Assembly: GCA_965178125.1 (NCBI GenBank)
Contig: OZ237762.1
Location: 620,001 to 684,000, forward strand
Direction: 5' to 3'
DNA: 64,000 nucleotides
Source: Bilabrum cf. latius
Lineage: Eukaryota
Shown here: positions 38,401 to 58,222 of the stretch, piece by piece
Numbering within the stretch: the stretch's first letter is position 1
Layout: every line of letters starts with the position of its first letter
Notes under the pieces: model-generated
The model's database searches: none
The model's input: the letters and a program-made list of their open reading frames with translations, nothing else
What the model was told of the DNA's origin: nothing
Program-made: the position numbers and the translations under genes

Positions 38401-39436
38401 TTCGCCTGAAAGCAGCTGCGCCGTACAGCAGGTTGATGCTCTACCCGATGTGCAACCACGGCTGCAAAGCATCCTGACTGTCGTAAGTGAACAAACCAAG
38501 GAAACGTCTACCAGCGAGAGTTCGGGCACTTTAATGCATGGACCTAGAAAACAAGCAGCTGAACGTGATGCAGTTGCGTCTGAGAACGTGTAGCGTACGC
38601 CTCGCGCGAGTACATAGCGAATCACCCGCAGCTCTTGGCCCGGTGCTGGCGAGATGAATCCGCCTTATGTTGCCACGAATACAATGTGGAGCATACTCAC
38701 CGTGGCTGGTGTGCTGGGCTAGGAGTTATAGGCCCGTGTGCTTGCTGTGCACATCGCGATACATCAGGAATCGTCGAAGGTGGACCCACTTCGCAGGCAG
38801 TTGCTGCACACTCGGCCTGAGTTGAACTAGCTTGTACATGGAAGGCCTCGTGCGGTACGATAGCACGCTGCCGTACGCCTGTAGGATGCGAATAGCTTCA
38901 CTAACATCGGAGTTGCAACTGCACAGGGTGACAGCGCGACGTTGTCCCATCATGATGGTGTCTAGCAGTGCGCTCGTTCTGCAGAACCCCCTTCAAGTAG
39001 TAGCCGCGAGCTGCATGGAAGCAGGACACACCTGAATGAATTCGCCACTCAATAGAGGGTATCAGACCAATCTGTGATCCTCGCAGACAGGCACTCAGGA
39101 AGTTAGGCTAGTATCCGCCAAAGCGGCGAGATAGCAAAGGACCCCCGGAACAGTTGCCATCAGGACCAGCCAAGTGGCAACGACTGCAGAACTTCTGGAT
39201 GCGCTTCGATGGGTTGGTCCCACTGGATCGACACGATAATGTGCGGTGCTTGTATTCTCTGGGCTATCTTGTGCACTTTTGGAGCCTGCCCCACGGCTGC
39301 CTGCATGCGTGCGCAGGCTGCCCCTGACCTGGCCCAGATGCCTTGGGCCCTGCTGGTGTGGGACCGTGTGGCAGCGAGTGGGGTTTCCGTTGTACTTGGC
39401 CTGATTGGTTCACTATTTGTCACAATCGGTCCGTGA
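35438..39436 (+). CDS. Large multi-pass membrane protein of unknown function with a Cys-rich ectodomain (5' end uncertain, possibly ATG 34540)
   Basis: ORFs 35438-36658, 36680-37456, 37589-38593 and 39209-39436 are in one frame and joined by TAG. Several hydrophobic segments are present. Confidence 0.6.
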
Positions 39437-39694
39437 AATTCCGTTGAATTGTGTGGAAAGCAACTTTGTTGGTGAGGCCAGCAAGGTCTCTGAGATTGAG
39501 GTCGCTCGGTGGGCGCAGGACCCGCTCGAGGAGCAGGCTCAGATGCGACGTAGCGATGCGGAGGAGTGAGAGAGAGAGAGCGGCTAGGGAGGGAAGTACA
39601 GGGGTGGGGTGGGGTGGCGAATGGGGGGGGGGCTGGGGGGGGCGGGGTGGGCGAATGGAAGGGGTTGGGGAGGGTAGAGCAGAGGGAGGGGGGA

Positions 39695-40698
39695 GGGGGG
39701 GACAACAGGTGGTGGTAGGTACACCAAGCGTTTAGGACGAGGGCTACGCTACGCTCGCCCCTCCTTTAAAGGCATATTTAGCAACTCAAGTGTTTCCCCT
39801 ATAAACCTAAATGATTTCACAGGGGGTTCCCCAAGAACCCCTATAGAACCCCTCTATGTACCCATTTTCAGATATAAAATTTACTCCTACGAAGTAGGGG
39901 TAAATTGAAGAATTCTAATATTTAACCCCCTTATAAACTCTAACAGCAAAGACAGAGATGTTTTAGTAAAGTAGGAAAAAATGAAGAAATTAACCAAGTG
40001 TCCAAAATATCTCTGTGTTTGCTGTAGGAACGGAAGGATGAATTCCCAAGAGACCAAGAGACCAACCGAGGATTTCCCCAAGAGAACAAGGTATTTTATC
40101 AAGAGACCGAGGTATGTTCCCAAGCGACAAACCGATAAACCGACCGATGAACCGACCGATGAACCGACCAAGGATTTCCCAAGGATTTCCCAAGGATTTC
40201 CCAAGGATTTCCCAAGGATTTCCCAAGCGACTAAATTGTTCTCCGAAGCAACCAAACCGATTACCCAAGAGATGATACATTATAAGGAAAACGAAAACGT
40301 ATTTTAAGTCCCTTTGGAAAAGTCCCCCAAGATGCTCGGGCTTTGCCCTCCGCTCTTTTGATATCTTTTTCAAAGATTAAAATTGAGAGATTTTACAGGT
40401 CAATTTTAAGAGACTTAGAAAGAATAAATATATTTTCCAATTAAAATTAAATGTTGTAATTCCTATGATGCCACCATAAAAATTAAAAGGAAAACGAAAA
40501 CGTATTTTAAGTCCCTTTCGAAAAGTCCCCAAAAAACTTGTCAATTTTACAGGTCAATTATAAGAGACTTAGAAAAAATAAATTAAGTTCCCTATTAAAA
40601 TTAAATGTTGTAATTCCTATGATGCCACCATAAAAATTAAAAGGAAAATAAAAAACAAATTATAATTGTTTTCCAATTAAAAACACAAAAATTGATTG
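39695..40698 (+). repeat. Left terminal inverted repeat of the provirophage
   Basis: Begins GGGGGGGACAACAGGTGGTGGTAGG and is the reverse complement of 55960-57020. Contains 11-bp (CCAAGGATTTC)x5 and 12-bp (ACCGACCGATGA) tandem repeats. Confidence 0.95.
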
Positions 40699-40713
40699 CC
40701 TAAAGTGGAAATG

Positions 40714-40749
40714 TCGTACCTTAAGCATAACTTACGTAGTCTATAGTAC
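40714..40749 (+). promoter_or_regulatory. Conserved upstream motif TCGTACCTTAAG-N8/9-CGTA(G/T)TCTATA(G/A)TA (copies at 40714, 42132, 43846)
   Basis: Three near-identical copies lie immediately upstream of ORF 40760, the helicase and the pPolB. Confidence 0.75.
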
Positions 40750-40759
40750 AACCACATAA

Positions 40760-40999
40760 ATGGCAAAATCACAAAAGGAACTCGAGAATTACATCTTGGC
40801 GACCAAAGAATGTCTTAAATCAGTCCCGTTTATTACAACACGAGAAGCATACGATATGGCCAAAAAGTACCTTGAATTTACAAAGACTATTATTTGGATT
40901 AATTATGATGATGACGATGACCTGCTTGCTGACTTTGAGGAAGCTAAAGATTTAAGTCAAATTGTAGTTGAATGGCACGAAAGTACCAAAACCAAATGA
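40760..40999 (+). CDS. Virophage hypothetical protein (79 aa)
   Basis: Clean ORF preceded by the same TCGTACCTTAAG...TCTATAGTA motif as the helicase and polymerase genes. Confidence 0.7.
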   Translation: MAKSQKELENYILATKECLKSVPFITTREAYDMAKKYLEFTKTIIWINYDDDDDLLADFEEAKDLSQIVVEWHESTKTK

Positions 41000-41064
41000 T
41001 TTTTTCCCAAGAATTATTTTCCCTACTTTACAAAAGTAAGGAGAATGATACAACTATATAGCAA

Positions 41065-42120
41065 ATGAGTAGCGCCTTTGAAAGAATATTACAATCCCTA
41101 AACATTTATCCCAACAGTCGTATTGTAAATTTAATGAAACGACCAAAACGACCCAAAGGAGTAAATCGACCCCACGTAAATGTACCAGAACCTCACCAAG
41201 TGGTACAAATGGATTTATTATCATTACCCCACGACAATAATTATAAATACGCATTAACTGCTATTGATTTACATACAAAGTAGGCCGATGCTGAACCGCT
41301 CAAAACCAAGCGTTAGAACGAAGTATTAAAGGCATCAAAAAAGATTTTCAATCGTGGTAATGTCCAGAAACCGCAGCACCGTTTGGAAATAGATAATGGA
41401 AAAGAATTTAACGCTTTACAAAGATATTTAGAAGAGACCGATGTATTTGTACGAAGAAATAAAGCAGGTCGCCACCGACAACAGGCATTAGTGGAAAACC
41501 TAAATAAAACGTTGGGAAAAGCCATATTTACCCTATAGAACGTTAATGAGTTAAATACAGGTAATGAAAGCGTAGAATGGGTGGATATGCTTCCAAACAT
41601 CATTGAAAACTATAATGAATATCAACTAGAAAAGTATATAGAAGAACCACCTTTACCCCCAGAACACTTCGACTTTACGTAGTGTAAAGGAGACGCTTGT
41701 AATATATTGGAAGAGGGTACAAGAGTTCGTATACCATTAGAAGAACCCAGAAAGGCTACAAATTTACAGCAAAAATTATCCGGAAATTTCCGTGCTTCAG
41801 ATTTACGCTATAATCCAGAAATCAAAACGATAACTAAAGTATTATTAAGACCGAGACAACCACCCTTATATGTTGTGGATTAGGATGATTTAGTGGCTTA
41901 TCCAAAAGAGGAATTACAGATTATCGACTTTGATAATGAGGACAATAACCGAGATGCTCAGACAATCTTTCTCCCAAAAAAAATAAAATCCGAGAACGAA
42001 ACAGAATATCAAATAGAATGGAAAGATTTTCCAGAACCAGAACATTGGACGTGGGAACCAAAGAATAAAATCCAAGAAATTGCTCCTAATTTAATTTTGG
42101 AGTGGGATATAGAAAATTGA
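41065..42120 (+). CDS. Retroviral-type (rve) DDE integrase with a C-terminal chromodomain (351 aa)
   Basis: With TAG=Q: QMDLL...YALTAIDLHTK...EIDNGKEF...QQALVENLNKTL (D-D-E), and C-terminal YQIEWKDFPEPEHWTWEP. Confidence 0.92.
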
Positions 42121-42177
42121 GATGCCCCGTATCGTACCTTAAGGATTATTTTCGTATTCTATAGTACAACAACAAAA

Positions 42178-43839
42178 ATGTCATTCACTCTGCCGACTAA
42201 AGCGTATTCGTCAAAAAGCCTTATGGACCTATGTAATGCCGGAAAACAAGAGGAATGTATTCAATACCTTAAACAATACTTCTACCGCACCCACGAACAA
42301 GGTGGCGGGGTGTATTTTCTAATAGCATCTGAATTAAATCGGAATAACATAAGTGATGACGAACCCCAGAAACCAGTCTGGTAGTTCCTTACGAATAAAA
42401 ATATTACTGAAAATTACCTGATTGGGGGACACTGTATTTACGCGATTGTGGGCAACAAAAGAGTAAAGACTTGGTCAGCACGAGACTGGTTCTTAAATGA
42501 GAATACCGACGTATTTACGATTGTAAGAAAATTCAATTCACCTACCGTTGATTACGACAATCAAACAATTAACGTTATGGGTTCACCTATACTTACACGG
42601 GAAAACTGTGGAAACATAGAGGATTTAACCGAAGACGCAAAAGCAGGCGCGACTATGATTTACGAACATATCCAGAAGGTGTGGACTTCAGAAGACAAAG
42701 AATAGTGTGATTTTGTGATGAAGTGGTTGGCTCACGTTATTGTGGGCGGAAAGAAGTTGGGTACAGCACTATATTTGAAATCTCCACAAGGAACTGGTAA
42801 ATCGATGATTATTACCTTCCTTATGAGAAAACTACTCGGATATACCCTCACACTATAGACGCTTACACACAAGATGCTTCAACCCGACGCCTTCAACTCA
42901 ATTCTGGACGGGAAACTATTAGTCAATTTTAATGAAATTCCAAAAGCCTCGCCAACTATTTGGGACGCCATGTAGGCAACACTAAGAAATCTTATTACGG
43001 AAAAACACTTTTCCTGTAATGAGAAGTTTGTCAAATCCGAAAGTCGTCCGAATACATTCAATTTAATTATTGATACGAATGATAGTCCAATCAAAATCAC
43101 CGAGGAAATCCGTAGATATTGTGTTTTGGATGTGAATACATCTAAGAAAGGAGACAAAGAATACTTTACAACACTAAAACGTTTTACAGAAAATCCAGAA
43201 GTGGCTAAGGCATTTTATATGTTATTGGTTGAAATCTATGATACATCACCAGACTTTACAGGACAATTCGCACCAAAATCAAAGAATTTTTACAAAGGAA
43301 TTCTTGATGGCGCACATCCGGTTTTAAAAATTCTAAAAGAAGAGTGGCTGGACGAAGGCAGAGATTTTAAAATGACAGTCTTGGAATTCCGCAATTATCT
43401 AAAGCAGGAACTGAACGGTAGAGTGAAGAACCTTGGTACACCTATGATTAAAACACTATTGTCAGAGGTAGGTGTTCATTCAACGATGAACAAATAGAGA
43501 AAACAAGAATTTAATGTGAAACACGCAGACTTACTAAAAGGCTTCCAATCTAAATTTTAGGCACTTCGTCATTCTGCTGAGATGGAAAAAGCAAAATCCG
43601 AGGTAGATGTTCTTCGAGAATAGATTAGAGAACTACAGAAACAAGTCGCATAGCAGTAGGAAACGATTGAATAGTTGGAATTAGAAAAGGAGATTACACC
43701 GACGGAACAAGTCCATAAGAAAATCCAGAAACAGCTGAGTGTTGAGAATAGCATCGCTATTCAAAAATGGATAAAAGAGAACCCACCAAAGAACAAAAAA
43801 GGAAAACTTTCCAAATTCCTCTGTAAAATTGAGAAGTGA
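42178..43839 (+). CDS. SF3/D5-like helicase with a C-terminal coiled coil (553 aa)
   Basis: Walker A YLKSPQGTGKS, Walker B-like LVNFNE, motif C-like IIDTN and RRYCVL. Continuous frame through TAGs to TGA 43837-43839. Confidence 0.88.
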
Positions 43840-43896
43840 GTGAGTTCGTACCTTAAGAATAATTATCGTATTCTATAATATAATAGATACTATAGA

Positions 43897-45738
43897 ATGC
43901 CCGAAATCGATTTTACGGAACCCCAAAGAACCAAATTGCGTCTTAATGGGAAACCAATATGGAGTATGCGATTTGAGAGCGAGGACCTTATCACCGTAAA
44001 AAATGTCTTGGAATTTATTCGTGATTACGACGATGGTGGTGAAAATCCGTTTGATGACTTTAAATTTAAGGTGAATATCAATTACCAAGATACAGGTTGG
44101 CGAACACGAAGCACTTGGATTACTACAGATGATTTAGAAAATCAAGATAGTTTATGGGCGGGCTACGAAGACGACGATGACGACGAATATAGAAAATTGA
44201 ATTCTTTTGAACTACTGCTTATTAGAAAGCCAGAACCAGAAGGCGGTGCTGACGAACATAACGATTGTTTATATAACGCTATAAAACAGGCTTTTCCTTT
44301 TTCAGTTGGTCGTAAGGTAAATGTAAAGAACGCAAAAGGCAAATGGAAAACTACTATTAAAAGAATGTCATAGTCCGACCTGAAAGAATTCTTGAAAATT
44401 GGGCGTGATGACCCCGTTGATTACAGAAGAATACCAGAGATAGAAGACGAACTAGAAATACGTATTAACGTTGTGGGCGACTTTGAATACACATCTGGAA
44501 AAACTCATTTTGACCGTCTTCTAACTGTATCATTAACAAATGGGCATTACAAGTATGTTCCCCCCATTAGTTAGAAAGAATTATTTACACCGCCGTCTAA
44601 AGAACCGTGTACGCTAATTACCCGCTTGTATCAATCCGAGAATTCTTATTTACTATTTGATGGAGACCGTGAGTATCAATCAGAAGGCATTACATCAGTT
44701 TCCAAGGATAAATTCATCTTTGAAGTCAAGTCCAAGGAAGAACTAAGAACAAAACACGAAGAACGGATGAAAAATGTAAGGGCATTAGCGAAGGAGACGG
44801 GTGGATATATGGATTTATCACGATTTATGTTTAGAACATCCCTATTTGTAAAGTCGTATTTCAGTAAGTTTTCCAAACTTTACCCTGCCGACCCGATTGA
44901 CCAAGTTGAAGCACTATGGATTTCAAGAGCATCAGGTGGTGGATTGAATTGGGCAAACAAGAATACTACATTGAAAAACGCATACCAGTACGATATTAAC
45001 TCATTTTATCCAAGTATTATGAAGGGTACATTTACATTTCCGGTTAGAAGGGGTAAGTTCGTACAATTTAAAGTACCATCCAGTGGGTTCTATCCGTACG
45101 GCATTTTTAGGGTACATATTGAAAATCTCAATTCTAAATTAGTACAAAAAAGAAAAAACAATTATTATACCCAATATGACATTAACCGAGCGATTGAGAC
45201 GGGCGCTTAGGTGTCTCTGATTGAAGACGGTGAAGCCAACGCTTTACTTTACGATGAGACAACAAGGGTGAAGGCAAATGGACTGTTCAAAACGATGATT
45301 GAGCGATTGTACGGTTATAAAAAATAGGGATTGAAGTGTGCGAAGGAGATACTAAATAATATTTGGGGTTCTCTATGTTAGAAAAACACAATCACAAAAA
45401 CACTCCGAGATGGTGATTGTATGAATTTTAGACAATTAAAGAACGCGTATCCTAAAGCATCTGGACGACTTGTATCGGGTATACTATATGACGAAGAGTA
45501 CGATTACAAAACAGCCTACGCAAGAATGGGCCCCTTTCTGACTGGACTTGGACGAAGTAAATTGTCCAAAATGATTGAGCCATATCTTGAAAACATTCAC
45601 TATGTCAACACGGATGGTTTCATTAGTGAGAAAGAATTACCTCTAAAGTTATCAACGAACCTTGGGGGTATGAAGTTGGAGCAATCAGGTGAATGTCAAA
45701 TTATTCACAGTAAGAAGAAAATTTTTAGAAAAGATTGA
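43897..45738 (+). CDS. Protein-primed family B DNA polymerase (613 aa) with an N-terminal OTU-like module
   Basis: Polymerase motifs YDINSFYPSIM (A), KEILNNIWG (B), YVNTDGF (C) and HSKKK. NDCLYNAI...LTNGHY lies upstream. Confidence 0.92.
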
Positions 45739-45739
45739 A

Positions 45740-46012
45740 TTAAATAGTCTGCTTTTCCTTTAGTCTCTAAATTTCCTATCGCAAACTATCAAGTTCATCC
45801 ATAATATTAATTTGTTCCCTTTTTGTGTCTTCCTCTTTTTGAAGCCAATCAAGGTGTTTTTTGGTTCTACAATGATGTGATTTATTGTACTTCTTATATA
45901 CACCACCACAGGAACACTTTATCTATTCTCCAAGTTTTTCCTTGTTTTTCCGGTAGTATTCACGGGCATACAGCTTATCCTGTTCTTTTCTTTCTGAATG
46001 ACTGAGTGTCAT
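45740..46012 (-). CDS. Small zinc-finger protein (90 aa)
   Basis: With TAG=Q: YYRKNKEKLGEQIKCSCGGVYKKYNKSHHCRTKKH, a CxC...H...H motif typical of virophage and giant-virus Zn proteins. Confidence 0.75.
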
Positions 46013-46053
46013 TTTTGTATTCTATAGTATTATACTATAGAGTTAGATTTAAG

Positions 46054-46695
46054 TCATACATTCTACCAAGCAATTTTTAGAGCATCACTTTTCCCATATC
46101 CTCTACCTCTTAACTACTGAGCGATTTTCATTGCTAGTTTTGCTTTTGGGTTTTTCCGACGGCGCCTCCCTTTTCCAGTTTTTTGTGGTTTAAAACTCTA
46201 CTTCGCTCTTTCGTTCGAGCCCCAATCAGGCACTTCACCACCCATTCGCATTACTCTAGCCTATCTCGATGATAATAGTTCTTTCTAACTATTTCCCTTC
46301 TCTCTAGCATCAAAAAATTCACGCATAGTATCTCTCCGTTCTGACGCATATTTTCTATGAATTGCCTAATTAAAATCATCAAGTGTTGTGTCGTGTTGCT
46401 CGTGTAGTGATGGTGATAAGAATTTTAGTATACCCACGTCATAATCACCATCACTATCTTTGTCAATTCCTAGCGTATCAAATTCTTGTTCGGTCTTTTC
46501 GGCGAGCATTTCCATCATTTCCCTTTCCTAAGGGTTTACATATACACGATTAGCGTACTTTTCCCCTATACTCTAGTGCTTCCTCAATCCTTTCAAAATT
46601 GCTAGTGCTTGTCTAGCGTCTTTCCCCAAACTCTGATGTGGCTAACTAGCCAGTAAATGTAGTTGTTCTTCGGTATAATCATCAACACCCGCCAT
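46054..46695 (-). CDS. Virophage putative core protein with a basic C-terminus (213 aa)
   Basis: TATAGTAA-ATG start. Open under TAG=Q to a TGA stop. C-terminus GKGRRR...LRGRGYGKSDALKIAW. Confidence 0.7.
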
Positions 46696-46715
46696 TTACT
46701 ATACACAATCATAAA

Positions 46716-47972
46716 TTAATCATACGCAAACATTTTCCAAGCCTACTTAAGTGCTGTCTTCTTGGATATTCCTTTTCCTCTTAAAATGGACGCCATTTTC
46801 ATAACTCTTGAACGTTTTGTTTCACACTGACATTGACCTCCAAATATTTCCAGATACATACCCGATACTGGGTCATTCGTATGCGAATGGATTTCTTTCA
46901 TAATTGGTCTTCCAACTGTTTTAGTTGCTAAATCCCAACCTTCCTTAAAATCTTGTCCAAAATCCCTTTCTGTGTTCTACTTATGCTTTTCCTAATTTTT
47001 TCTTAAAGCGTTTCTTACATCTTCCGGTAAATCATCTAAGCCTCTCCCAAACCATTTGGAAAAATAACCAGCCACATCAGTAGCAGCATTAGCCACTCTC
47101 TTAGTAAATCCCGATACGTTCTTAGCAATACTCTCTACATCCTACATAATAAATTGGTTTAAGGGTGGTGTCAAAAACCCATTTGTGCGTAGAACATCCT
47201 AAATGAACTTTTGACAATTCAACGAGAAAGCACGATACTAATAAAAATTGTATTCTCCTATTTTCTGTAAAGTGGTTTCATATAATTCCCTTACTGTTTT
47301 CTAAGGTTTTCCATTAATATTTACTTCCATAGTTTGTGTTTTCTTGTTGGTGGAAAATCTTGAGGACAAATTAACCCTCTCATTCTTCTCAAGATAAATC
47401 TTTTTTCCACCTCCAAGGTTCAACTCTAAGGCTAAGTGAAAAAAATCATTATATCCGTGTTTATTTTTTAACTTTTTCATTTTTCCAAGGGTAATCCAGT
47501 TAAGCAACCGATTAATCGCGCCACTAATGGGGGTTCTAATTACTTTCATAGCTATAATTGTTCTATCCCCGTATTGCTGTAGTGTTCTCTGGACTTCGTT
47601 TGAATTCCCATACACTACTCCACCCTTAAGCTGTTGCGCCAGCTAACTGCGCCGAGAGGGGGTGCTTCGCAAACCATCTTTTAAATACTAATGAAGTGTG
47701 TTGGATTGTGTGGATTTCTTCTAGGATTTCTTTTTTGGTTTTCCTTTTGTTCCCACACCATCTTTAAGCTGTTGCGCCAGCTAACTGCGCCGAGAGGGGG
47801 TGCTTCGCACACCATCTTCAAACTTAATTGCTTTTTCAAGGGCTTCTTTAGAATAAGGATGTTCACTTTTCCATGTCCTTGTTGTTTTACTCTTTGGTTC
47901 TTTGACACTAATGTACGTCTTAACAAAACCAGAATTCATTTTTCCGCCACTAAGTGTATAAAAACTATCCAT
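46716..47972 (-). CDS. Virophage protein with a permuted papain-like (H...NC) domain (418 aa)
   Basis: Open under TAG=Q to a TAA stop. Motifs FFHLALEL...LEKNERVN...YRAFSLNCQKF. Confidence 0.72.
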
Positions 47973-47997
47973 TTAGTATAGGCTTGTATTAAAAAAC

Positions 47998-48615
47998 TCA
48001 TAGACGACTTCCAAGACCGAAGGTTTTCCGGACGAATTCCTCCAGTTGCTAAAAGGATGAATAGACACAGTACTAACTCTAATGTAATCCAGCGATTAAA
48101 TTCGTTCTTGAGCGTTCTACAGACAATAAGTCCCCCGATTTTTTCCCTTCACGGATTTCCTCAAAAAGACTGTGAGAAGGCACACACACAAAAATTGAAC
48201 TTTCCTTAAATAAATCTTTCGCTAATTCCAACGAACCAACCATAACAATTAAACGCCTGGATTTCTTTGTGAGCCAATCCGCTTTAATTTTTTCATACAC
48301 TAATCTTGACTAAGAGTAATAAAAGAGACGGTGGGTGCTTTCATCACCATCAATTAGCATTTTCTCCATTTTCTATTTTTCCTACCCTGAAATCTAACCA
48401 TTTACGCATTCATCTAAGTCAATGACCAAAGTGTCTTTATCAACACTTTCTATAGAGCGACACAAAGTAGTTTTCCCAGAGCCCTTAGGTATAACCACGC
48501 AGGATTTCTGTTTCTAAGTTCCGTCTTTCGTCCACCAAGAATATAGGCACTTGCTTCCTGTATAAGCTAAAGGGGCTAAAGTCCCAGCAACCATTACAGC
48601 AGTTGATACTGACAT
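47998..48615 (-). CDS. Small P-loop NTPase/kinase-like protein (205 aa)
   Basis: With TAG=Q: CVVIPKGSGKTTLCRSI...LVIDLDE. Has a hydrophobic N-terminus. Confidence 0.75.
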
Positions 48616-48670
48616 TGTTTTGATATACTATATACCAAGACAAATATTTATTGGTTTACCCTTTTCATAC

Positions 48671-50437
48671 TCAACCTTGGAGCATTGCGAGTAATTGGTT
48701 GCGAGATAAAGATTTCCCACCTGTTAAGCCCGAGCCTAACTTGGCACCTGTTAAGCCCTTGCCTTTCTTGGTAGTTTTTCGGGGTTTCCTTTGGCGACCC
48801 ATTCCAGCCATTTCACCCACCATTTTAGCGGTGTCAAATACCTACTTACCATCCTTTAATACTTTTTTGAGATTGCCTTTCTTTACCCAATCAGCGGTTT
48901 TGTGTGCGAACTTTTTTAAGGCGTGTCTAATCTTTTTACCAAGACCCCTACCGTGTAGTCCGCTTAATTGACTTTCATATACTACGGGTAATTTAGAGGC
49001 GGAAAGAACATCTGCCCGTGAGATGACACCCTGCTAATACTCAATCTTAGAACCATCAATCACATTCATTACTCCTTCGTACAATCCCACAACCACACAC
49101 TACACATTTTGGTAATCTACAACATCATTATTCTTCACTCGTAGGGTGATAGACAATTGGTTAGAGCCGTTGCTTCCATTTGTCTAATCTACATCTAGGC
49201 TCAAATCCTTGGCGGGGTCGATGGAGAGAATTGCGCCTGATAGCACCCTATCCCCGAATTTACGCATAGCCCATTCCGCGTATTGCTATTCAAGTCCATT
49301 GCTTCTGGATAAGTCCCATAGCTACTGAGGTGAAGCATCTGCGAGTAATCCACTTTGGTTATTCATCTCAATAGATATTCCCTCAATTCCAAGGAATGTG
49401 TTTCCCTAATCTACTGAGACGCTGGTAGGTGAGCGACGGGCAAACACAAATAGACGAGATGGAACTGAATTGCTAAGTTTAATATTGTTGTTCGTAAGAG
49501 TTGCTGTTGTTCCTGCGCTGATTGTTGCACCATAGCTTTGAGTATATGAAGTCATTTCAAAAATATCATAGGATACCTGTTTTGGAAGGACAAACCCTGT
49601 TTTAGGGGTAATCTATTCAAGGTATAAATAGGGGTTCTGGACATCTACCGACTAAACGGTAGCAGTTAAGTCCTATTGTGGAATACGAGACCACACGGTT
49701 CTACTCAGTTGCGACCAATTGATATCCAAGGAAAGAGTTTCTAAACCGAAAATGGCTGGTTGTTCCTATTTACTTTCGTAATGGAAAGGTGGGCAAAGAA
49801 CCGCCTCAGTACATTCAAAGACAAGAACACGATTTTGCGTTTGACCTGCGGGCACTGGAGTGTTATCCATTTGAACCAAGTTATAAAATCCACTTCCTCT
49901 TGCGGGTTGGTCCTAAAGCACGTCCTCATACGAAGCAAGAGCGTTATTTGTAGCCTAACTCATCATCGCGTATGAAGGCACATTGTCGCGTCTATACACA
50001 CTATCAAGGCAATTCACACGATGAACATCATCATCTAAACAATGGGACACTACGTCCATTATTTCCGCGTTATTCTAAGTAAAGCGAATGTTATTGATAC
50101 CAACTGTCTGTGTTGCAATGGAGCGATTAAGTGGATATGAGCGTGGAGCATCGTAATCTGGTGTAAATGGTACGAGAGCACCTGCGGTTTGATTATTCAC
50201 GGAAAAGGTGATAGAAAATCGGCATGAGACATAGGCGCGGCGGCACAAACCTACACCTGAAGGCATACTAATATTCCAATTCACACCTGAATTATAATTA
50301 CCGGCTGAACCAGATGGAGCGTATCTGCGAAACGTTCGGTTCTCATAACCTTCTTGAACTTCATAAGGCTTTGGTTGTACGTCTAATGTTGCGGGAGATA
50401 CTTTGACTGGCTGAAGGGCAAATGTATTCAATGACAT
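48671..50437 (-). CDS. Virophage major capsid protein (double jelly-roll, Sputnik-like; 588 aa)
   Basis: The N-terminus LQPVKVSPATLDVQPKPYEVQEG...VNWNISMPSGVGLCRRAYVSCRFSITF parallels the Sputnik-type MCP. The size fits, it has a Gly/Lys-rich C-terminal tail, and it lies next to the penton gene. Confidence 0.87.
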
Positions 50438-50515
50438 TTTTGTTTTCCTTGTATATTATATACAACGAATAAAATTCTATGGGGTTGCGTCTCCATCCGA
50501 CGAATTATCATTTAT

Positions 50516-51631
50516 TCAAAGTCCTTTCCGTTTCTTAAATAAAAACTTCACACTCACACTTCCGTGGCGTAAATAAAGAGGTCTTAGATTTGAATAATTA
50601 TCTTTCCAATAAAGATTAAACTAAATCCTATCTACTGAATGTGTATCTAAAAAATCAATTTCGTGGAGAATATGGGGCTGGTATTGAAGAACCTACTAAT
50701 TAACTGTTTCAGTGTCATCTAATACACAGTCCATATCCACTAATAAACTCTCGGTCCCTGAACCTGAATTCTAATCTGTATTTGTGGATTGTCCATAGGC
50801 GGATTTCTAGGATATTGCCTCACTCCTCACTGGAAGACTTGAAGATGTGAAAACTATTCCGCGAAAAATCTAAAACTACACTAAACTCCCTCGTTCCTAG
50901 GTCATCATTAATCTGTAGTCTCCCGTTGGGTTTCCCTCGAAGTATGCCTAAGGTTCATATTTTCCAACAGAAGAGCCATCATCGAATAAAACATTGGTTC
51001 CTAGGGTTTTGAATAGAATACTGGCGTATAAGTCGTCATCTTGGATATCCATTCGTTCCATAGGAAAACCCGTCATCAGTTCGTTAAGGGCTTCATTCAA
51101 CACTAATTTAAATTTTTGTCCTGAGTTTTCCTCGTCGTAATCGGGGTTTGCTACTAAACTGAACTTTCCATCTTTGAATAGTAAAACCGGAACTGATGTA
51201 ATATCCGCTGATAAAGCGTTCTATAGGGTTTCGTTGAATAAATCAACAAAATGCTACACGGAATACATATAATAATAAGGAACAAACTACATAGGATTGG
51301 AAAAAGATGGTTGGTTTTCCCCTGTTAACTAGGGTCTCCATATAATACTTTCCGTCCATAATTGTACTCCACTTTCATCTGTAATGCTAATTCTATACAC
51401 CGTTTGATTAGGATTTGAAGATGGATTTTTCACTTTATCGGTTTCTATGTGTGGAACCCATAAAGGTATTGAATTGGTGCTTATGGAAAACCGGAATACT
51501 GACATCGTATAATCACCAACATCCTTATCTAATAATGGCTACTTGCGGGTTTCGCTATAGGTCGCTGGTTGGAAAGTATCTTCGTTATTTCGTATGTTTG
51601 CGGTAATGTAAAATCGGTCTGGAGAACTCAT
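50516..51631 (-). CDS. Virophage minor capsid (penton) protein (371 aa)
   Basis: With TAG=Q: YSETRKQPLL...DYTMSVFRFSI...IPLWVP at the N-terminus and YWKDNYSNLRPL...SVKFLFKK at the C-terminus. Missing from the supplied ORF track. Confidence 0.87.
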
Positions 51632-51687
51632 TTTACTATAGACGTTTATAATTATGGGGTGGGTTTGATTACTTTTCTAAAGTATAA

Positions 51688-52179
51688 TTAAGATGGTGTA
51701 ATAAGTGAACCTGACACTAAGGATTTCCAACTAGATGTAGAAGAACTGCCAATCGCCACATAGACATCGTTGTCGCTTCCATTATACACTAAAGCGCCCT
51801 TGAACTTTCGCTCTGCTGACGTATTAATAGGGGTAGAAGCGTCAGCCAATGTAGCTCCAGCAACCTCACTCAGCCCAACAACACCCTCTTGAGAAGTCTT
51901 GAATGAACCAACTAGTGAAATATCGCATCTTTCTCCTTCTTCGCTCATACTGAACTGACAACCAGCAGACGCTCCATTTTTTCCAAACCGTAGAACAGTT
52001 TCACCCCACTCCATATAAGGCTCTCCGTCTTTGAATTCAATACTTGGATTGCCTATGACTGCTCCCGTAGAGTTAGTAATTGCGGACACTTTAATTGCGT
52101 CGCTACTCACAACATTACACGTAATAGTTTGAGACATAAGGTCTAGACTGTTCTTAGATAGAAGATTTGAAACTGACAT
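51688..52179 (-). CDS. Virophage hypothetical beta-rich protein (possible spike/fibre; 163 aa)
   Basis: Clean ORF ending in TAA, directly upstream of the penton gene. Confidence 0.7.
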   Translation of the reverse strand: MSVSNLLSKNSLDLMSQTITCNVVSSDAIKVSAITNSTGAVIGNPSIEFKDGEPYMEWGETVLRFGKNGASAGCQFSMSEEGERCDISLVGSFKTSQEGVVGLSEVAGATLADASTPINTSAERKFKGALVYNGSDNDVYVAIGSSSTSSWKSLVSGSLITPS

Positions 52180-52244
52180 TTTATAGTATATCCACAGAAA
52201 TAATTTTTATCAGGTTGCCAAAAGATGTAAATAAGAGGTTTTGG

Positions 52245-53426
52245 TCAATCTTTTCCTAAAAGATGTAATAGTTCCATAGCAACCTAATGATGAATATCTT
52301 TATCGGCTCCTTTTACTTTCTTGGCTACATTCATTGCTGTATCATAGATAATCCTTTTTCCACCTCGTAATCCTTTCCCCTTTTTTGGTTTTCCACTTTC
52401 TTCTACAGTCATTGCGCGTGATGGTGGGTCTTCTAAATCAGGCTACTAAATTCCATAGGGCGGACTAAACCCCGTAAATCGCTACACAGGTCTAGTAGCA
52501 CGTTTTCCAATTCCCTGCTCAATTTCTATCCTACTCGGCATATCATAGTACTCACCAGTTTCTGGGTCCCACGCCCCCGGAGTGCTTCCTTGCGGTAGTG
52601 GTCTTTCATTGCTCGCTGCGGCTAATATGGCATCTAAGTCTTTTGATGTTTTTGACGCATTACTACTTGAACCCTCTTGAAAATGCTAAAACATATTTGT
52701 CTGCCCCTGTGATGTTCTTTGTGAGAAATTCTTTCCCTATTCTAAATCCCACGCTATTCGTTGTTTTTCAGTTAAGGGTCTGTCTTGTTGTATTCTTTCT
52801 CTGGCTCTTTCCAATAACTATTTATACGCACCCGAAGACCTTTTTGGAAGCTGTACTTGTGTTGGAGCGGAAAACGTGTTTCTTCTTGTTGTTCGAGCAG
52901 GTGTTTGTAAAGATGTTGGCTACTAATCAATTCCCAACATTCCCTACGGTATTCGTTGTCCGGATGCCTCCTATATAACTTTCCCTAATTCTAAGAGTTG
53001 TTTTCTGTCTTCAGCTGGAACTCTCTGCAGTCCTTCGTAGCCTTTCCTTTGAAATCTCTCAATATTTACGTATTGACGGGCTAGTTGTTGCTTCATTTGT
53101 GGAGACATATTGATATTACCAACAAAATCCTTCAATGCTTTCACTGCTGGACTTACATTTTTACCCTCAATAATACCTTTCATTATACCAGATATTGACT
53201 TAGATATGATTTCCTCGTTGCTTTGGTCTGCCTATTTTCTCTACGCTGGAGTTCCATACCTTCCACTTTCTTTTAATCGTTCAATTTTTGCCCTTTTCCT
53301 TATAAAATCACTATATTCTGTTTCTAAATCTACGTCGTCCCTTGCCTGTAAATCTAACATTTTAGCATTGTCCAGTTCCCTTTCTAGGGCTTGCTGAATA
53401 AGAGCATTCACTTTAGCAGTTTTCAT
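52245..53426 (-). CDS. Virophage hypothetical or core protein (393 aa)
   Basis: TATAGTAA-ATG start. ORFs 53241-53426 and 52971-53183 are joined by TAG and continue to TGA 52245. GKGLRGG occurs near the C-terminus. Confidence 0.72.
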
Positions 53427-53491
53427 TTACTATAAGCTTTTATAAAAAGCTTGACCAAAAAATAAAAAATAAAGTGTTTGTGTATAGTATA

Positions 53492-53728
53492 ATGGATATT
53501 GATAAGTGGATTATATAGAGAACCAAACAACTCGCGCTATAGAAAGAACAAGACGCTTTAAATAGAGTTAAAAACCATCATATTAAAGTTGGAAAAGGTT
53601 TAAAGCCCAAACGAAAAGTTTCTGAGAAAATGAAACGTCGCAATAAACTTGTAAAAATGGTGATGTAGTAGACTGGTATGAGTTTACCTCAAGCAAGTCG
53701 GTATATACGAGAATAGAATATTATTTAA
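53492..53728 (+). CDS. Small basic core protein (pVII-like DNA-condensing motif; 78 aa)
   Basis: With TAG=Q: VGKGLK...RRNKLVKMVMQQTGMSLPQASRYIRE. TATAGTATA precedes the ATG. Confidence 0.72.
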
Positions 53729-53757
53729 AGAAACTTTTATAACAAGTTTGACCAAAA

Positions 53758-54660
53758 TTACATAAGGTAAGCCTACTTTTCTCCTAATAAATACCTCGGG
53801 TAATTCCTGTGGACACATACCCACCTAGAAGGCATTTTTAAGACTTTAGAGATTTCTTGTTTCTCAAGTCCTATATAATTTTTTAGTAAATACCTTAGAG
53901 AATGTGCGGAAGAACACTAAGGGAATATAACGAACTTATGACTTTCCGCAAGAATAATTCGGGTACTTTTATAGTTGGTAGATAAATGACTTGTGATTAA
54001 TACAGAAGTATTTGAATGTCTTCCAACCTACAATATTTCATCCTGTAAATGATTGAGGGCTTCCCTTAACTTCTTATCTTTGATTGTATCAATATCATCC
54101 AAGATTACTAAGGCGTCCCTTAATTCCTAATGAATATCAATCGGGTTCTCCACCAGTTCCTCATTTAAAATAATCCTTTTCAGTCCTTTCACTTCATCTA
54201 AGACTTTATCCTACTATACTCGTGAAAATAAAATAATTCTCCTGTTTGGAAACATTCTGTGATAATTCTTAGCATATTTGGAAACCCAAGTAGACTTCCC
54301 AGCACCTGATGGTGCGGTGATATAAATGACCTCTCTTCCTTTTGGATTTGGTAATGATTGGAATTCACCCTATTTTAATGTAATCTCTTTATGTTTCTTT
54401 TCCTATGCTTTTTCATACAAGTATTTGATGTCTTCGTCTAGGGGTTCGACCTGTTTGATTAAGTGTCGTGCTAATAAATCCATTTTCCTCTGCGGAAATC
54501 GTTTCCCTGTAAGTGATGATACTTGAAAATCCTAGAATGATATACTATCATCTCCAAATTGGTTGTCTGTCTTTTCCGCTGTGTATAAAATACGTTTTCC
54601 GTGTGTGTCATATGCGATAGGTGTTGATTTTGTAGTTTCCTTCCAAGAAAAATGTGCCAT
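53758..54660 (-). CDS. FtsK/HerA (A32-like) genome packaging ATPase (300 aa)
   Basis: Motifs IYITAPSGAGKS, LVILDDID, GRHSNTSVLITSH and TRIILAESH. Ends in TAA. Confidence 0.92.
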
Positions 54661-54850
54661 TTTAGTGTATTTACTATATGTTTTTATATTTTCTAAAGTG
54701 TTTTGTCTTTTTGTTGAAAACTTATTTTGAATGATTGTCTTTTATGCTATCCACAAATTCCAAAACGGATTTTGTAGAAATACTTCTACGCATAAATAAT
54801 GGTTAAGAGATGTTTTTATCTCCCCCAATATATATGTATATAATAAATAT

Positions 54851-55387
54851 ATGGATTATGCTCTTAGCGATAGTGATATTCGTGTTCTCCTCCAAAATCC
54901 ACCAAATATTAAGGCATTTCTTCCTACGTCGGTAAACATCGTTCCATATACAGAATTAGGATAGTACAATAGTATTGATGGATTATTTAGTCGTTGTAAT
55001 TGTTGTATCATTCTATACCAAGAAGAAATAAACTCTGGACACTGGGTCTGCTTATTTAAGCGTAATAAAACAATATACTTCTTTGACAGTTATGGAATTC
55101 GTCCTGATAGGCAATAGCACACAATGAGTGAAAGCGTGCGGAAACGTTTTTATGAAGACCCTGAGTTAATTTATTTAATGTATCATTCTCCGTATAAGAT
55201 TGACTATAACCCATATTAGTTTTAGGCGGATGGAATGGATATAGCAACCTGCGGGAGACATTGTATAGTTCGTCTTTGGAATAGAGCGAAAAACGCTAAT
55301 TAGTATAAAAAGTGGGTGGATAAGGTTTGTAAGAAACATACATTAAATCCTGATGAATTAGTGTATTTATTGACGTGTCATTTATGA
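54851..55387 (+). CDS. Virion maturation cysteine protease (adenain/Ulp1-like; 178 aa)
   Basis: Motifs SGHWVCL, FFDSYG and (TAG)F(TAG)ADGMDIATCGRHC. Confidence 0.92.
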
Positions 55388-55666
55388 ACTCCAAAGGTAA
55401 AAATGTGAGAAGAACTTTGGGGTTCTTGGTTTTACTTCGATACCGTGTCGTTTGAAGTATCTAAATTGGCGGTCCGTATCTAAATGATTTAAATGGCTGT
55501 AATACCCTATTCTATCGTAAAATTGCTAATACCGCCTATCACCAAACGATGTAATATATTCATCATTTTCGTCAAAAACATCATACTTCTTATTCTTGCG
55601 TCTTGAGGGTGCTTTAAATAGAAAATTCTCAACAACCTTTTCAAAATCGTAGGTATGTAGCTTCAT
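55382..55666 (-). CDS. Small conserved viral protein (DUF5754-like; 94 aa)
   Basis: Pattern KNKKYDV...SFGDRRY(TAG)QFYD...RYFKRH...PKFFSHFYLW, as seen in virophage, PLV and giant-virus small proteins. Family assignment is from recall. Confidence 0.7.
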
Positions 55667-55697
55667 AAGTACTTTATAGTATAGTCTTCTACTTATA

Positions 55698-55811
55698 TCA
55701 AAGCCCGAGCTTCTTGTATTCCTTTAGTTTTTCGTGTAATTTTTTCCAAATACGTGGATTAATTTGCTTGACAATATGCTCTATCATCAACTCCTTTAAA
55801 AATGGGTTCAT
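55698..55811 (-). CDS. Virophage micro-ORF (37 aa)
   Basis: Preceded by the CTATAGTAA-ATG motif shared with the other viral genes. Confidence 0.45.
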   Translation of the reverse strand: MNPFLKELMIEHIVKQINPRIWKKLHEKLKEYKKLGL

Positions 55812-55959
55812 TTACTATAGTGATATAGAATGGCTTAAATTATCATCTCTTGGGAAATCCAATCTTTGAAAAAGATATCAAAACAGCGGAGGGCAAAGCC
55901 CGAGCATCTTGGAAAATTAATTTTAATATTTCTTTGTATCCTATATTGTCAAAATTTTT

Positions 55960-57020
55960 CAATCAATTTTTGTGTTTTTAATTGGAAAACAATTATAATT
56001 TGTTTTTTATTTTCCTTTTAATTTTTATGGTGGCATCATAGGAATTACAACATTTAATTTTAATCTTTGAAAAAGATATCAAAAGAGCGGAGGGCAAAGC
56101 CCGAGCATCTTGGGAACTTAATTTATTTTTTCTAAGTCTCTTATAATTGACCTGTAAAATTGACAAGTTTTTTGGGGACTTTTCGAAAGGGACTTAAAAT
56201 ACGTTTTCGTTTTCCTTTTAATTTTTATGGTGGCATCATAGGAATTACAACATTTAATTTTAATTGGAAAATATATTTATTCTTTCTAAGTCTCTTAAAA
56301 TTGACCTGTAAAATCTCTCAATTTTAATCTTTGAAAAAGATATCAAAAGAGCGGAGGGCAAAGCCCGAGCATCTTGGGGGACTTTTCCAAAGGGACTTAA
56401 AATACGTTTTCGTTTTCCTTATAATGTATCATCTCTTGGGTAATCGGTTTGGTTGCTTCGGAGAACAATTTAGTCGCTTGGGAAATCCTTGGGAAATCCT
56501 TGGGAAATCCTTGGGAAATCCTTGGGAAATCCTTGGGAAATCCTTGGGAAATCCTTGGTCGGTTCATCGGTCGGTTCATCGGTCGGTCGCTTGGGAACAT
56601 ACCTCGGTCTCTTGATAAAATACCTTGTTCTCTTGGGGAAATCCTCGGTTGGTCTCTTGGTCTCTTGGGAATTCATCCTTCCGTTCCTACAGCAAACACA
56701 GAGATATTTTGGACACTTGGTTAATTTCTTCATTTTTTCCTACTTTACTAAAACATCTCTGTCTTTGCTGTTAGAGTTTATAAGGGGGTTAAATATTAGA
56801 ATTCTTCAATTTACCCCTACTTCGTAGGAGTAAATTTTATATCTGAAAATGGGTACATAGAGGGGTTCTATAGGGGTTCTTGGGGAACCCCCTGTGAAAT
56901 CATTTAGGTTTATAGGGGAAACACTTGAGTTGCTAAATATGCCTTTAAAGGAGGGGCGAGCGTAGCGTAGCCCTCGTCCTCAACGCTTGGTGTACCTACC
57001 ACCACCTGTTGTCCCCCCCC
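55960..57020 (-). repeat. Right terminal inverted repeat of the provirophage
   Basis: Ends CCTACCACCACCTGTTGTCCCCCCCC. Has the 11-mer x7 and an extra ~50 bp module at ~56065-56113. Confidence 0.95.
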
Positions 57021-58222
57021 GGGGACGACGGTTCACCGGAAAGGGGGAGGAAGTAGTGGAGGAGAAGATGATTGGTGGGGTCATCGGTTTGATGCGGCGG
57101 ATCGGAAGGGGGAGGCACAGGCCGGGCAGGTGGGGGTTTGGGCATGTGTGTGACGAGTGACTCGGATCAGGGGGATCGGATCACCCGACCACATGCGGAT
57201 GTGGACTCGAGCGGCAATCAAGCCGCGTGCTATTCGGGCGCTAAGGGGCAGCGCTCGCCATTTTTTCTTAATTAACCTCTTGCTCTTCTATGGATTCAAG
57301 TAAGGCATCGTAGAAGCGCACAGAGCGCGCTGAGCGTCGGGCGGCATCAAAGAGCCGGTCCAATTCTGTATCATCTGGCGGGATGCGGGCGGCCGCCGCT
57401 GCGTCCCCGGCGCCGCAGGCCGGCCCATCTATTGTTCCTGCTGCTAGTCATGGCCCGAGACCGGCGGTAGGTGCAATGCAGCCCGCGATGCGGCCGTGTC
57501 CAAGACCGGTGAGTGGACGGCGCCCGCTGGATGCGGAAGTGGCGGCTGCTGCCAGAGCTCGCCTCGCGGTTACGTGTGATCTCACGGGGGATAAGGCCAC
57601 ACCCCTGCTCTTGAGGAAGGATCGTAACATACTCTGGTCGCCAAAGCCAGCTAGGATAGCTGTGGCCCTCAGGCCTTTCGGAAGTGCGTTTGATTCTTTG
57701 TTGGGGTCCGCCTTGTCCGACACTGGTTGCCACCCCTCCTGGTGGATTCGGACGAACTCCTCCTTCGGGAGGTGGAGAGATTTTTCCATCGGGGGCCGGT
57801 GTCCAGTTTGTAACGCGCGCACGATAGCCTGAATAGGCAGCTTGCGGTACTCATCAGGGTACCGGCATATGCGCCGCTTTGTTCCAGGGGTCGCGAAACC
57901 CAGTCTTTACAGGTTGTGCTGGAGCTCCGGGTTACAGGCTGCCTGTAACAGGCCACCCCCCCCCCCCCCCCCCCGGGGTCTCGAGCCGGCTCGAGGGTCA
58001 CGTTTCCGATTCGTAGTCGAGACACTCTGCGTTTCCGAGTAGTCTTTACAGCAGGTTTCGAGGCTGGTTTTTCCGTCTGGTTGGTAGATTTTGGCTGCTC
58101 CTTCGGCTTCCTGCCGTACTGAGATCACACGTTGTACAGCACCCTAATCTCGCAGACAGTCACACATGGTTGCAGTTGGTTTCCTCCGAGAGCCCATTCT
58201 CAAAGTTACCAAAAAGAAATAC

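Follow-up and report, generated by a model that had tools for sequence, protein, structure and literature searches.

A probable integrated virophage of about 17.3 kb that reads TAG as glutamine

We analysed a 64,000-nucleotide (nt) window of DNA from Bilabrum cf. latius (assembly GCA_965178125.1, contig OZ237762.1, positions 620,001 to 684,000) and found in it an element of about 17.3 kb (39695-57019/57020; all coordinates are positions within this window). The element is very probably a structurally intact virophage, integrated in the nuclear DNA of a GC-rich eukaryote, in which TAG stands for glutamine (Gln) and TAA and TGA are stops. This code assignment is the TAG assignment of NCBI table 15. 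Virophages of the Sputnik and mavirus group form the class Maveriviricetes. Endogenous virophages have been proposed to act as an inducible defence of protists against giant viruses, and it has been suggested that alternative genetic codes keep viruses out.

Results

The element is open when TAG is read as sense

The element stands out as an AT-rich island. Its GC content is 0.327-0.429 per 1-kb window from 40001 to 57000, compared with 0.51-0.72 in both flanks. In the standard code the longest open reading frame (ORF) within the island is 163 amino acids (aa), and every large gene is interrupted. The major capsid protein (MCP) is reduced to a 120-aa piece at 50075-50437, and no ORF of at least 80 aa lies over the penton, ATPase or protease intervals. 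When TAG was read as Gln, 16 packed ORFs with short spacers and no frameshift were obtained (382, 553, 613, 90, 213, 418, 205, 588, 371, 163, 393, 78, 300, 178, 94 and 79 aa). An earlier reading of this DNA, made from the letters without database searches (the sequence-only reading), had described an AT-rich island of 17.3 kb that looks like wreckage in the standard code, with the penton, ATPase and protease absent from the ORF track and the MCP cut to 120 aa. It had counted about 17 packed full-length genes after re-translation with TAG as Gln. The base composition, the ORF call and the re-translation all bear this description out, with 16 ORFs in place of about 17.

The 16 ORFs comprise 4718 codons, among which TAG occurs in frame 113 times and TAA and TGA not at all. 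Ten of them terminate with TGA and six with TAA, and none uses TAG as a stop. The other two frames of the same DNA contain 262 TAA and 276 TGA triplets, so that chance falls far short of explaining frames that stay open for 300-600 codons. At least one TAG is present in 14 of the 16 ORFs, and TAG accounts for 2.4% of the element codons and 41% of its Gln codons (113/273).

Comparison with relatives points to glutamine as the meaning of TAG

We compared 11 element genes codon by codon with their orthologs in L004, a related locus on a metagenome contig (56% identity, 3631 columns). The 97 element TAG codons in this comparison were opposite CAA or CAG 23 times, TAG 12 times, Lys codons 11 times, Glu codons 9 times, Tyr codons twice and gaps four times, with the rest scattered. 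As a control, the CAA and CAG codons of the element were opposite Gln in 42 of 119 cases (35 CAA/CAG and 7 TAG). In a likelihood test, TAG was masked as X before alignment and the candidate residues were scored by the substitution pattern of those same alignments. The log-likelihood at the 113 sites was -286.7 for Gln, -337.1 for Lys and -347.8 for Glu, which puts Gln ahead of Lys by 50 units and of Glu by 61.

The MCP was also compared with homologs in public protein sets. Gln was found at 7/14 TAG sites in P0002 compared with 10/25 CAA/CAG sites, at 4/14 compared with 9/25 in P0003, and at 3/11 compared with 6/19 in P0004. Eight of nine homologs, with identities as low as 25%, have Gln opposite the TAG at residue 384. 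P0001, which is 90% identical, has Gln at 13 of 13 MCP TAG sites; we gave this agreement no weight because its source may have translated TAG as Gln.

The lengths of the ORFs agree between the element and L004 (553/547, 613/613, 588/587, 371/375, 178/175 and 205/206 aa). Because reading through every TAG gives proteins of ortholog length, we see no sign that TAG also terminates. Taken together, the comparative evidence indicates that TAG stands for Gln in the element. The sequence-only reading had proposed this meaning, and the MCP homologs, the codon-by-codon comparison and the likelihoods agree with it; a random alignment of the TAG positions was not observed.

The host part of the window also needs TAG as sense

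The flanking DNA codes for eukaryotic proteins, namely an AGC-type kinase with Pkinase_C, a family-3 G-protein-coupled receptor-like protein and a PPPDE peptidase (Pfam). In the host part of the window, the standard code gives one ORF of at least 800 aa (841 aa). With TAG as sense there are seven such ORFs (longest 1840 aa), with TAA as sense one (841 aa) and with TGA as sense three (longest 1353 aa). TGA triplets outnumber TAG triplets there by nearly two to one, yet the ORFs gain more when TAG is freed. Eight host ORFs with 9616 codons contain 57 TAG, no TAA and no internal TGA, and TAG makes up 13% (57/429) of their Gln-type codons compared with the 41% in the element. The kinase match (4.3e-73) is a single uninterrupted stretch over residues 367-623 and spans a TAG at residue 433, which we take to be the Gln of the conserved Phe-Gln-Thr motif of AGC kinases. 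The long host ORFs and the kinase domain thus need TAG as sense, as expected of the recoded host that had been supposed for this element.

The four virophage hallmark genes are present

The MCP gene (48671-50437, minus strand, 14 TAG) encodes a protein of the Sputnik V20 type. It matched PF22031 with 96 bits (2.2e-27) and PF21915 with 80 bits (1.9e-22), the cut-off being 27 bits. Against PDB sequences it matched Sputnik V20 (3j26_A) at 5.4e-29 and mavirus (6g45) at 1.6e-8. The penton (minor capsid) gene (50516-51631, minus strand, 14 TAG) encodes a protein of the Sputnik V18/19 type, which matched PF21507 with 38.3 bits (8.9e-10; cut-off 27) and had Sputnik (3j26_N, 2.7e-13) as its only match among PDB sequences. 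We also considered a capsid of the Polinton/Maverick or polinton-like type. This candidate was ruled out, the sole capsid families matched in Pfam being those of Sputnik virophages.

The third gene (53758-54660, minus strand, 9 TAG) is predicted to encode a DNA-packaging ATPase of the FtsK-HerA/A32 type. Its Pfam matches were generic AAA families below the cut-off, and its profile gave weak P-loop matches only against PDB sequences. The structure model (predicted local distance difference test, pLDDT, 92.7) had as its best PDB match the packaging NTPase B204 of Sulfolobus turreted icosahedral virus 2 (STIV2; 5.5e-7, template-modelling score TMt 0.62). Against the BFVD viral models the best match was the packaging ATPase of Yellowstone Lake virophage 5 (2e-31, 32% identity), with Sputnik V3 at 3.6e-28 and mavirus at 7.7e-17 and 17% identity. 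Its identity is 32% with the proteins of Sputnik and the Yellowstone Lake virophage and 17% with that of mavirus. Residues G119, G121, K122, D188 and D189 are invariant in the homolog alignment.

The fourth gene (54851-55387, plus strand, 5 TAG) is predicted to encode a clan-CE (adenain/Ulp1-like) cysteine protease. It has 2634 relatives at E of 0.001 or below, and an alignment of 61 sequences shows no variation at H64, Q125 and C134 and a conservation of at least 90% at D79. None of these 61 family members had a Pfam match, and there was no significant match among PDB sequences. The AlphaFold model (pLDDT 96.2) matched OtDUB (2e-5) and the adenovirus protease (1.2e-4), and also Ulp1, pS273R of African swine fever virus and mpox I7L, with a range of 2e-5 to 3e-3 and moderate TM scores of 0.4-0.5. 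Two other leads for this protein were rejected: WD40 "matches" among PDB sequences were sums of sub-threshold repeats, and a PDB sequence match to SdeA (E 0.3) was not significant. The ATPase and the protease were therefore assigned by confident matches of their predicted folds.

All four virophage hallmark genes, MCP, penton, packaging ATPase and clan-CE cysteine protease, are present. The virophage identity claimed from the letters is thus supported by profile scans for the MCP (2e-27 and 2e-22) and the penton (9e-10) and by fold for the other two.

Recoded relatives occur on metagenome contigs

Alignment-based scans found related loci in IMG/VR (L001) and on metagenome contigs (L002-L008), and single-protein scans of viral and metagenome contigs for such loci found nothing. 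L001 is a distant virophage with an MCP 25% identical to that of the element. It has no TAG in its four hallmark genes and therefore serves as a standard-code control. The seven metagenome contigs L002-L008 carry an MCP about 60% identical to that of the element. Three of these, L002, L003 and L004, are separate records whose MCP genes are 99% identical to one another; they are broken in the standard code and whole when TAG is read as Gln. A recoded relative of the element was thus seen in at least three metagenome records.

In L004, of which 13.8 kb of 15 kb was examined, the longest ORF in the standard code is 283 aa and the MCP is cut to 109 aa. BLAST orthologs were found there for 11 of the 16 element genes. 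A twelfth gene, o163, shares its N-terminus with a longer L004 protein. The 11 orthologs contain 46 TAG in 3820 codons and terminate with TAA (seven) or TGA (four), and 12 TAG positions are common to the element and L004. The MCP, helicase and polymerase of L004 matched the same Pfam families above cut-off, and its penton matched PF21507 with 23.7 bits, below the cut-off of 27. Because L004, about 56% identical, is likewise whole only with TAG as Gln and shares these 12 positions, the recoding is a property of the lineage, older than the split between the element and L004. No GC-rich flank was found in the parts of L003 and L004 examined; these may be free genomes or may merely be without their ends.

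Public protein sets contain full-length or partial calls of close relatives (P0001, P0002, P0004 and P0012). The prediction that standard pipelines would miss such an element was thus overstated, as close relatives are already in these sets and the 120-aa MCP piece survives.

Ends of the element and insertion site

An inverted-repeat search paired 39695-40223 with 56491-57019 (529 nt, 93%) and 40168-40592 with 56112-56536 (425 nt, 100%). Together with gapped alignment it defined a left terminal inverted repeat (TIR) at 39695-40698 (1004 nt) and a right one at 55960-57019 (1060 nt; an unpaired C follows at 57020), neither with a strand. The alignment of 39695-40698 with 57019-55960 had 997 matches, 7 mismatches and 5 gaps (99.3% identity), and the right TIR has an additional 56 nt of internal repeats relative to the left. 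Subrepeats were seen at 40168-40227 and 40279-40698 and mirrored in the right arm, consisting of the 11-nt tandem CCAAGGATTTC and units of about 200 nt. Each unit of about 200 nt carries AAAATTGA, and the number of units is higher in the right arm than in the left.

A candidate 5-bp target-site duplication (TSD), GGGGA, is present at 39690-39694 on the left and 57021-57025 on the right. The TIRs of about 1 kb and the TSD that had been noted in the letters are thus both there, the TIRs firmly and the TSD weakly. The immediate flanks, 39468-39694 and 57021-57205, belong to a multi-copy host repeat, with contig depths of 40 (run X1) and 1571 (run X2) compared with 4 and 31 in the unique flank.

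Copies in sequencing runs

Logan contigs of four sequencing runs (X1, X2, X7 and X8) were placed on 38300-58299 at a likeness of 90%. X7 is marked as probably DNA, and an RNA origin of X7 and X8 is a guess only. X1 and X2 contain the whole element. The depth of the main element contig was 30.6 in X1 and about 431 in X2, compared with 4.1 and 31.3 for the adjacent unique flank contig. These ratios of about 7 and about 14 suggest 7-14 copies that are almost identical, and they fit several integrated copies or extrachromosomal DNA, depth not being a copy number.

The main X1/X2 contig differed from the window copy at 35 positions in 5735 nt. Among the 39 differences listed of 249, 27 were synonymous and 12 were not; all were in genes, and one changed TAG to AAG. 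Differences between the window copy and the dominant X1/X2 copy cluster at 44330-44529 and 44925-45141, within the polymerase gene, which suggests a mosaic or recombinant origin of the copies.

Contigs of X1 and X2 also join 39690 to 57021, the form expected of an unoccupied copy. We regard this joint as supporting evidence for integration, not as decisive. X7 and X8 matched the left flank (38300-39496) without difference and did not cover the interior (40301-56308) at 90% likeness; since the data are contigs, this gap is no proof of absence. In X7, a 492-nt contig corresponds to the outer right TIR (56529-57019) and ends exactly at the TIR tip at 57019. This contig may stem from a solo TIR, from a sister element that has the same ends but is otherwise divergent, or from the free end of a linear molecule.

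Integration and replication genes

The integrase gene (40972-42120, plus strand, 6 TAG) encodes an rve core (D81, D141 and E175; PF00665, 38.3 bits, 1.7e-9, cut-off 32.6) and a C-terminal chromodomain (PF00385, 26.4 bits, 6.7e-6, cut-off 25.1). It is followed by a D5/VapE-type (superfamily 3) helicase gene (42178-43839, plus strand, 10 TAG). The helicase matched PF19263 (DUF5906/VapE-type) at 3.3e-15 and, among PDB sequences, the phage "Primase" entry 6k9c at 1.8e-10, and its L004 ortholog is 56% identical.

A putative short (613 aa) protein-primed family-B DNA polymerase is encoded at 43897-45738 (plus strand, 5 TAG). It matched PF03175 below cut-off and nothing among PDB sequences, and its L004 ortholog (60% identical) matched PF03175 with 37.2 bits. 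The polymerase is 613 aa long in both the element and L004 (1821-3662 of that locus), and the Pfam match is confined to the polymerase half, at about residues 332-518. The N-terminal 330 aa are conserved and without assignment, and an exonuclease part was not recognised.

The capsid module is thus of the Sputnik/Yellowstone type and the integration and replication module of the mavirus/Polinton type. The element had been called mavirus-like. This holds only for its integrase and polymerase, which are mavirus-like or Polinton-like. The capsid module is more like that of Sputnik and the Yellowstone Lake virophages, and for this reason the element does not count as mavirus-like in the strict sense.

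Promoter-like motifs

TATA[ACG]TA was found 8-27 nt upstream of ATG in 15 of the 16 element ORFs, the integrase being the exception. In L004 it lies upstream of 9 of 12 ORFs, with about 0.034 expected per 40-nt region. The exact form TATAGTA occurs 16 times in the window, always within the element, compared with about 2.7 expected from a composition-matched model, and 11 times in L004 compared with 1.6 expected. In five upstream regions TATA[ACG]TA is preceded by TC, which creates TCTA. TCTA has been reported as the core for late genes of the Cafeteria giant virus, and AAAATTGA as the early motif both in that virus and in mimiviruses (PMC5294985).

AAAATTGA lies 55-70 nt upstream of o79, the helicase and the polymerase, and also before the L004 polymerase. 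Fourteen of its 15 matches in the window fall within the element, eight of them in the TIRs. We take AAAATTGA at most as a hint of a mimivirid-like helper. A stop directly precedes the integrase ORF (locus 40760-42120), whose first 28 nt overlap the end of o79 in a different frame. Because of this start and this overlap, the integrase may be expressed from the o79 transcript.

Other genes and features of the flanks

Both promoter-like motifs stand upstream of o79 (40760-40999, plus strand), a small ORF without a TAG or a Pfam match and with no function assigned. Functions are likewise unassigned for o90 (45740-46012, minus strand, 3 TAG), with orthologs in L003 and L004; o213 (46054-46695, minus strand, 9 TAG); o418 (46716-47972, minus strand, 11 TAG), with orthologs in L002-L004 (44%); o393 (52245-53426, minus strand, 13 TAG), with partial orthologs in L003 and L004; and o78 (53492-53728, plus strand, 5 TAG), with orthologs in L003 and L004. 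The small P-loop-like protein o205 (47998-48615, minus strand, 8 TAG) has L002-L004 orthologs (55%) and a match to AAA_24 (0.0086) below cut-off. The DUF5754 protein o94 (55382-55666, minus strand, 1 TAG) matched PF19058 with 27.6 bits, the cut-off being 27.4.

A possible fibre or spike protein is encoded by o163 (51688-52179, minus strand, no TAG). Its L004 counterpart (3777-4922) is 381 aa long with Gly-rich repeats and the same N-terminus, and a weak lead from the protein atlas (0.90-0.92) suggests phage tail-like trimerisation proteins, so that a fibre or spike of variable length is possible. The basic C-terminal tail of o213 (46054-46150) is similar to those of o418 (46716-46815) and of its L004 ortholog (12494-13414), with the pattern ...LRG.G.SK..AL..AW., and the MCP and o393 end in Gly/Lys-rich tails. 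Both kinds of tail may be processing or packaging signals.

On the host side, a pair of 162-nt inverted repeats (57044-57205 and 58299-58460) lies 1.1 kb apart in the right flank, and contigs join the two on opposite strands. The pair may be another mobile element or an invertible segment. The 1840-aa host ORF (19692-25214) contains a very long Gly-Ala run that stems from a GA-type microsatellite, and the host proteins in the window are rich in low-complexity Gly/Ala/Ser tracts.

Discussion

Several observations weigh against an integrated virophage that reads TAG as Gln. As to the code, seven of nine homologs have a conserved Tyr or Phe opposite the TAG at MCP residue 175, and the Gln residues of P0001 and P0002 may themselves be TAG translations and so not independent. 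The nine TAG columns of the ATPase alignment (48 homologs) hold mostly Glu, Lys, Gly and Asp, with Gln in 24 of 375 cells compared with 28 of 254 at CAA/CAG columns, so that the ATPase gene alone does not single out Gln. A tRNA scan found no tRNA in the window and none in L001-L004, and no Rfam family was found in the window. As to integration, none of the listed contigs, the data being contigs only, spans the junction at 39695 or 57019. The joint between 39690 and 57021 has a short side of 21-24 letters at 90% likeness, which comes from the multi-copy flank repeat, and has one G beyond a precise empty site with a 5-bp TSD. The GGGGA duplication lies within a G-rich tract, with the unpaired C at 57020 between the right TIR and the right copy, and because of this context it is weak taken alone. 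As to the genes, the PF03175 match of the polymerase (23.5 bits) is just below the cut-off of 25.8, and the integrase ORF is without a promoter-like motif. In the core outside the TIRs, AAAATTGA occurs 6 times compared with 2.7 expected, with a maximum of 7 in 100 simulations, and is not significant.

The interruption of all large genes in the standard code would also be expected of a dead, mutation-riddled relic in a standard-code host, in which the TAGs are nonsense mutations. We find this hardly credible, as the interruptions are TAG only (113, against no TAA and no TGA) and come without a frameshift, the TAG sites show the substitution pattern of Gln, and a 56%-identical relative is likewise recoded and has 12 TAG sites in common with the element. 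Moreover, the TIRs are 99.3% identical, the differences between copies are mostly synonymous, and the host ORFs likewise need TAG as sense. It is very improbable that TAG is sense and stands for Glu, Lys, Tyr or Leu, or is an ambiguous codon whose reading, stop or sense, depends on context. In favour are Glu as the most frequent residue at the ATPase TAG columns (88 of 375 cells), the conserved Tyr opposite MCP residue 175, and the ambiguous codes reported for some ciliates. Against this, the log-likelihood of Gln is 50 units above that of Lys and 61 above that of Glu, and 23 of 81 informative TAG sites are opposite CAA or CAG compared with 9 opposite Glu and 2 opposite Tyr. Ambiguity is further opposed by ORF lengths that equal those of the orthologs when every TAG is read through, and by the absence of any ORF that requires TAG as a stop.

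A different doubt concerns integration itself, since the assembler could have joined free or episomal virophage DNA to a host contig. With a depth 7-14 times that of the flank contig, much of the element DNA could be extrachromosomal; the short-read contigs stop before the junctions, and the X7 contig ends exactly at the TIR tip at 57019. On the other side, GC-rich sequence adjoins both ends within one window, both flanks come from one host repeat family, and other contigs join the flanks at or near the TIR boundaries (39690 to 57021 in X1 and X2, and nearby in X7). With the candidate 5-bp duplication and an rve integrase also present, we judge a non-integrated element to be quite improbable. 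It is rather unlikely that the element is a self-sufficient Polinton-like integrating virus or transposon that has a virophage-type capsid and is independent of giant viruses. Its own rve integrase, helicase and protein-primed polymerase are as in Polintons, no helper virus sequence was seen, and the significance of AAAATTGA is weak. Yet the MCP, penton and ATPase best match Sputnik and Yellowstone Lake virophage proteins, and a single short AT-rich motif, a feature reported from mavirus-like elements and their giant viruses, stands upstream of almost every gene and overlaps TCTA in five upstream regions. Mavirus, which has the same pair of integrase and polymerase, is reported to be helper-dependent.

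For an integrated virophage in a recoded host, a life cycle can be proposed by analogy with mavirus and its endogenous relatives, as far as these are described (PMC8547959, PMC10945749). The linear genome would be inserted by the rve integrase, giving the 5-bp duplication, and the chromodomain may steer the integrase to repeat-rich chromatin, which we propose because the insertion sits in a multi-copy host repeat. The genes would be silent until the giant virus of the host brings its transcription machinery, which would recognise TATA[ACG]TA before nearly every start codon. The host ribosome and a host tRNA for TAG would then translate the mRNAs, and particles would be assembled and matured by the protease. 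On this view the element would be reactivatable and may protect its host, and a helper giant virus would have to avoid TAG stops, as the sequence-only reading had proposed.

The heavy use of TAG in the element (2.4% of codons, 41% of Gln codons) and the 12 positions shared with the distant relative suggest that the lineage has long resided in hosts in which TAG means Gln. The chances seem evenly balanced that a whole virophage lineage is circulating that is translatable only in such hosts, as suggested by recent multi-copy insertions under purifying selection and 99%-identical genomes in several metagenome records. If so, this would imply a giant virus adapted to the same recoded host, and the three partners, host, giant virus and virophage, would be a system that the genetic code closes off from hosts with the standard code. 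The idea of a code change as an antiviral barrier would then become directly testable.

A complete virophage and its sister lineage in metagenomes thus appear to have followed a host into a rare code that reassigns only TAG. As both share the host code, stop-codon reassignment has apparently not freed the host lineage from DNA-virus parasites, and a giant virus able to cope with TAG as a sense codon is predicted. Since such elements look like wreckage in the standard code, surveys that score "degraded" endogenous viruses by their stop codons will misclassify them.

Our full-text literature searches found no report of a TAG-only recoded virophage, with the limit that supplementary tables may list cases. 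Nothing relevant to virophage recoding was found in PMC11502894, PMC12220804, PMC12480563, PMC13215967 or the Halocafeteria preprint. An ochre-suppressor tRNA in one metagenomic virophage clade has been read as a hint of recoded hosts (PMC6905037). What is new here is an endogenous virophage, together with an environmental virophage lineage, adapted to the rare TAG=Gln code.

Comparison with known systems

The endogenous mavirus-like elements (EMALEs) of Cafeteria burkhardae and mavirus resemble the present element in several ways. They are integrated virophages of about 17-25 kb, AT-rich in an AT-poor host, with long TIRs and an rve integrase; their short TSDs and protein-primed family-B polymerase have candidate counterparts here. 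They also have type-specific promoter motifs before the genes, are multi-copy and have insertions that vary between strains. TSDs of 3-5 bp are reported for EMALEs and of 5-6 bp for mavirus (PMC8547959). Unlike the present element, EMALEs and mavirus use the standard code, whereas TAG is Gln here. The capsid module here is nearer Sputnik and Yellowstone Lake virophages (MCP 5e-29 compared with 1.6e-8; ATPase 32% compared with 17%), and the element also differs in its separate helicase of the D5 type and its short polymerase of 613 aa. For one EMALE type, a giant virus was shown to bring about reactivation (PMC10945749). Sputnik and the Yellowstone Lake virophages provide the closest named matches of the MCP, penton and ATPase and share the four-gene morphogenetic core. 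They differ from the present element in its rve-chromodomain integrase, putative protein-primed family-B polymerase, chromosomal integration and recoding.

The same codon assignment is reported for the nuclear code of Iotanema spirale, in which UAG codes for Gln and translation stops at UAA and UGA (Panek et al. 2017, PMC5304391); that is a finding from a cellular transcriptome, with no virus. The polinton-like endogenous viruses of Streblomastix strix, reported to use TAA and TAG as Gln (Bellas et al. 2023, PMC10120064), are the only comparable report in the literature searched, of which supplementary tables may list more. There too, an endogenous integrating DNA virus follows the non-standard code of its host, which was read as a long virus-host association. 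The MCPs of those viruses fall in a metamonad polinton-like virus/Polinton group, and TAA and TAG are both Gln (table 6). Here, in contrast, the element is a Sputnik-type virophage, TAG alone is reassigned, TAA is a stop, and recoded relatives are found on metagenome contigs.

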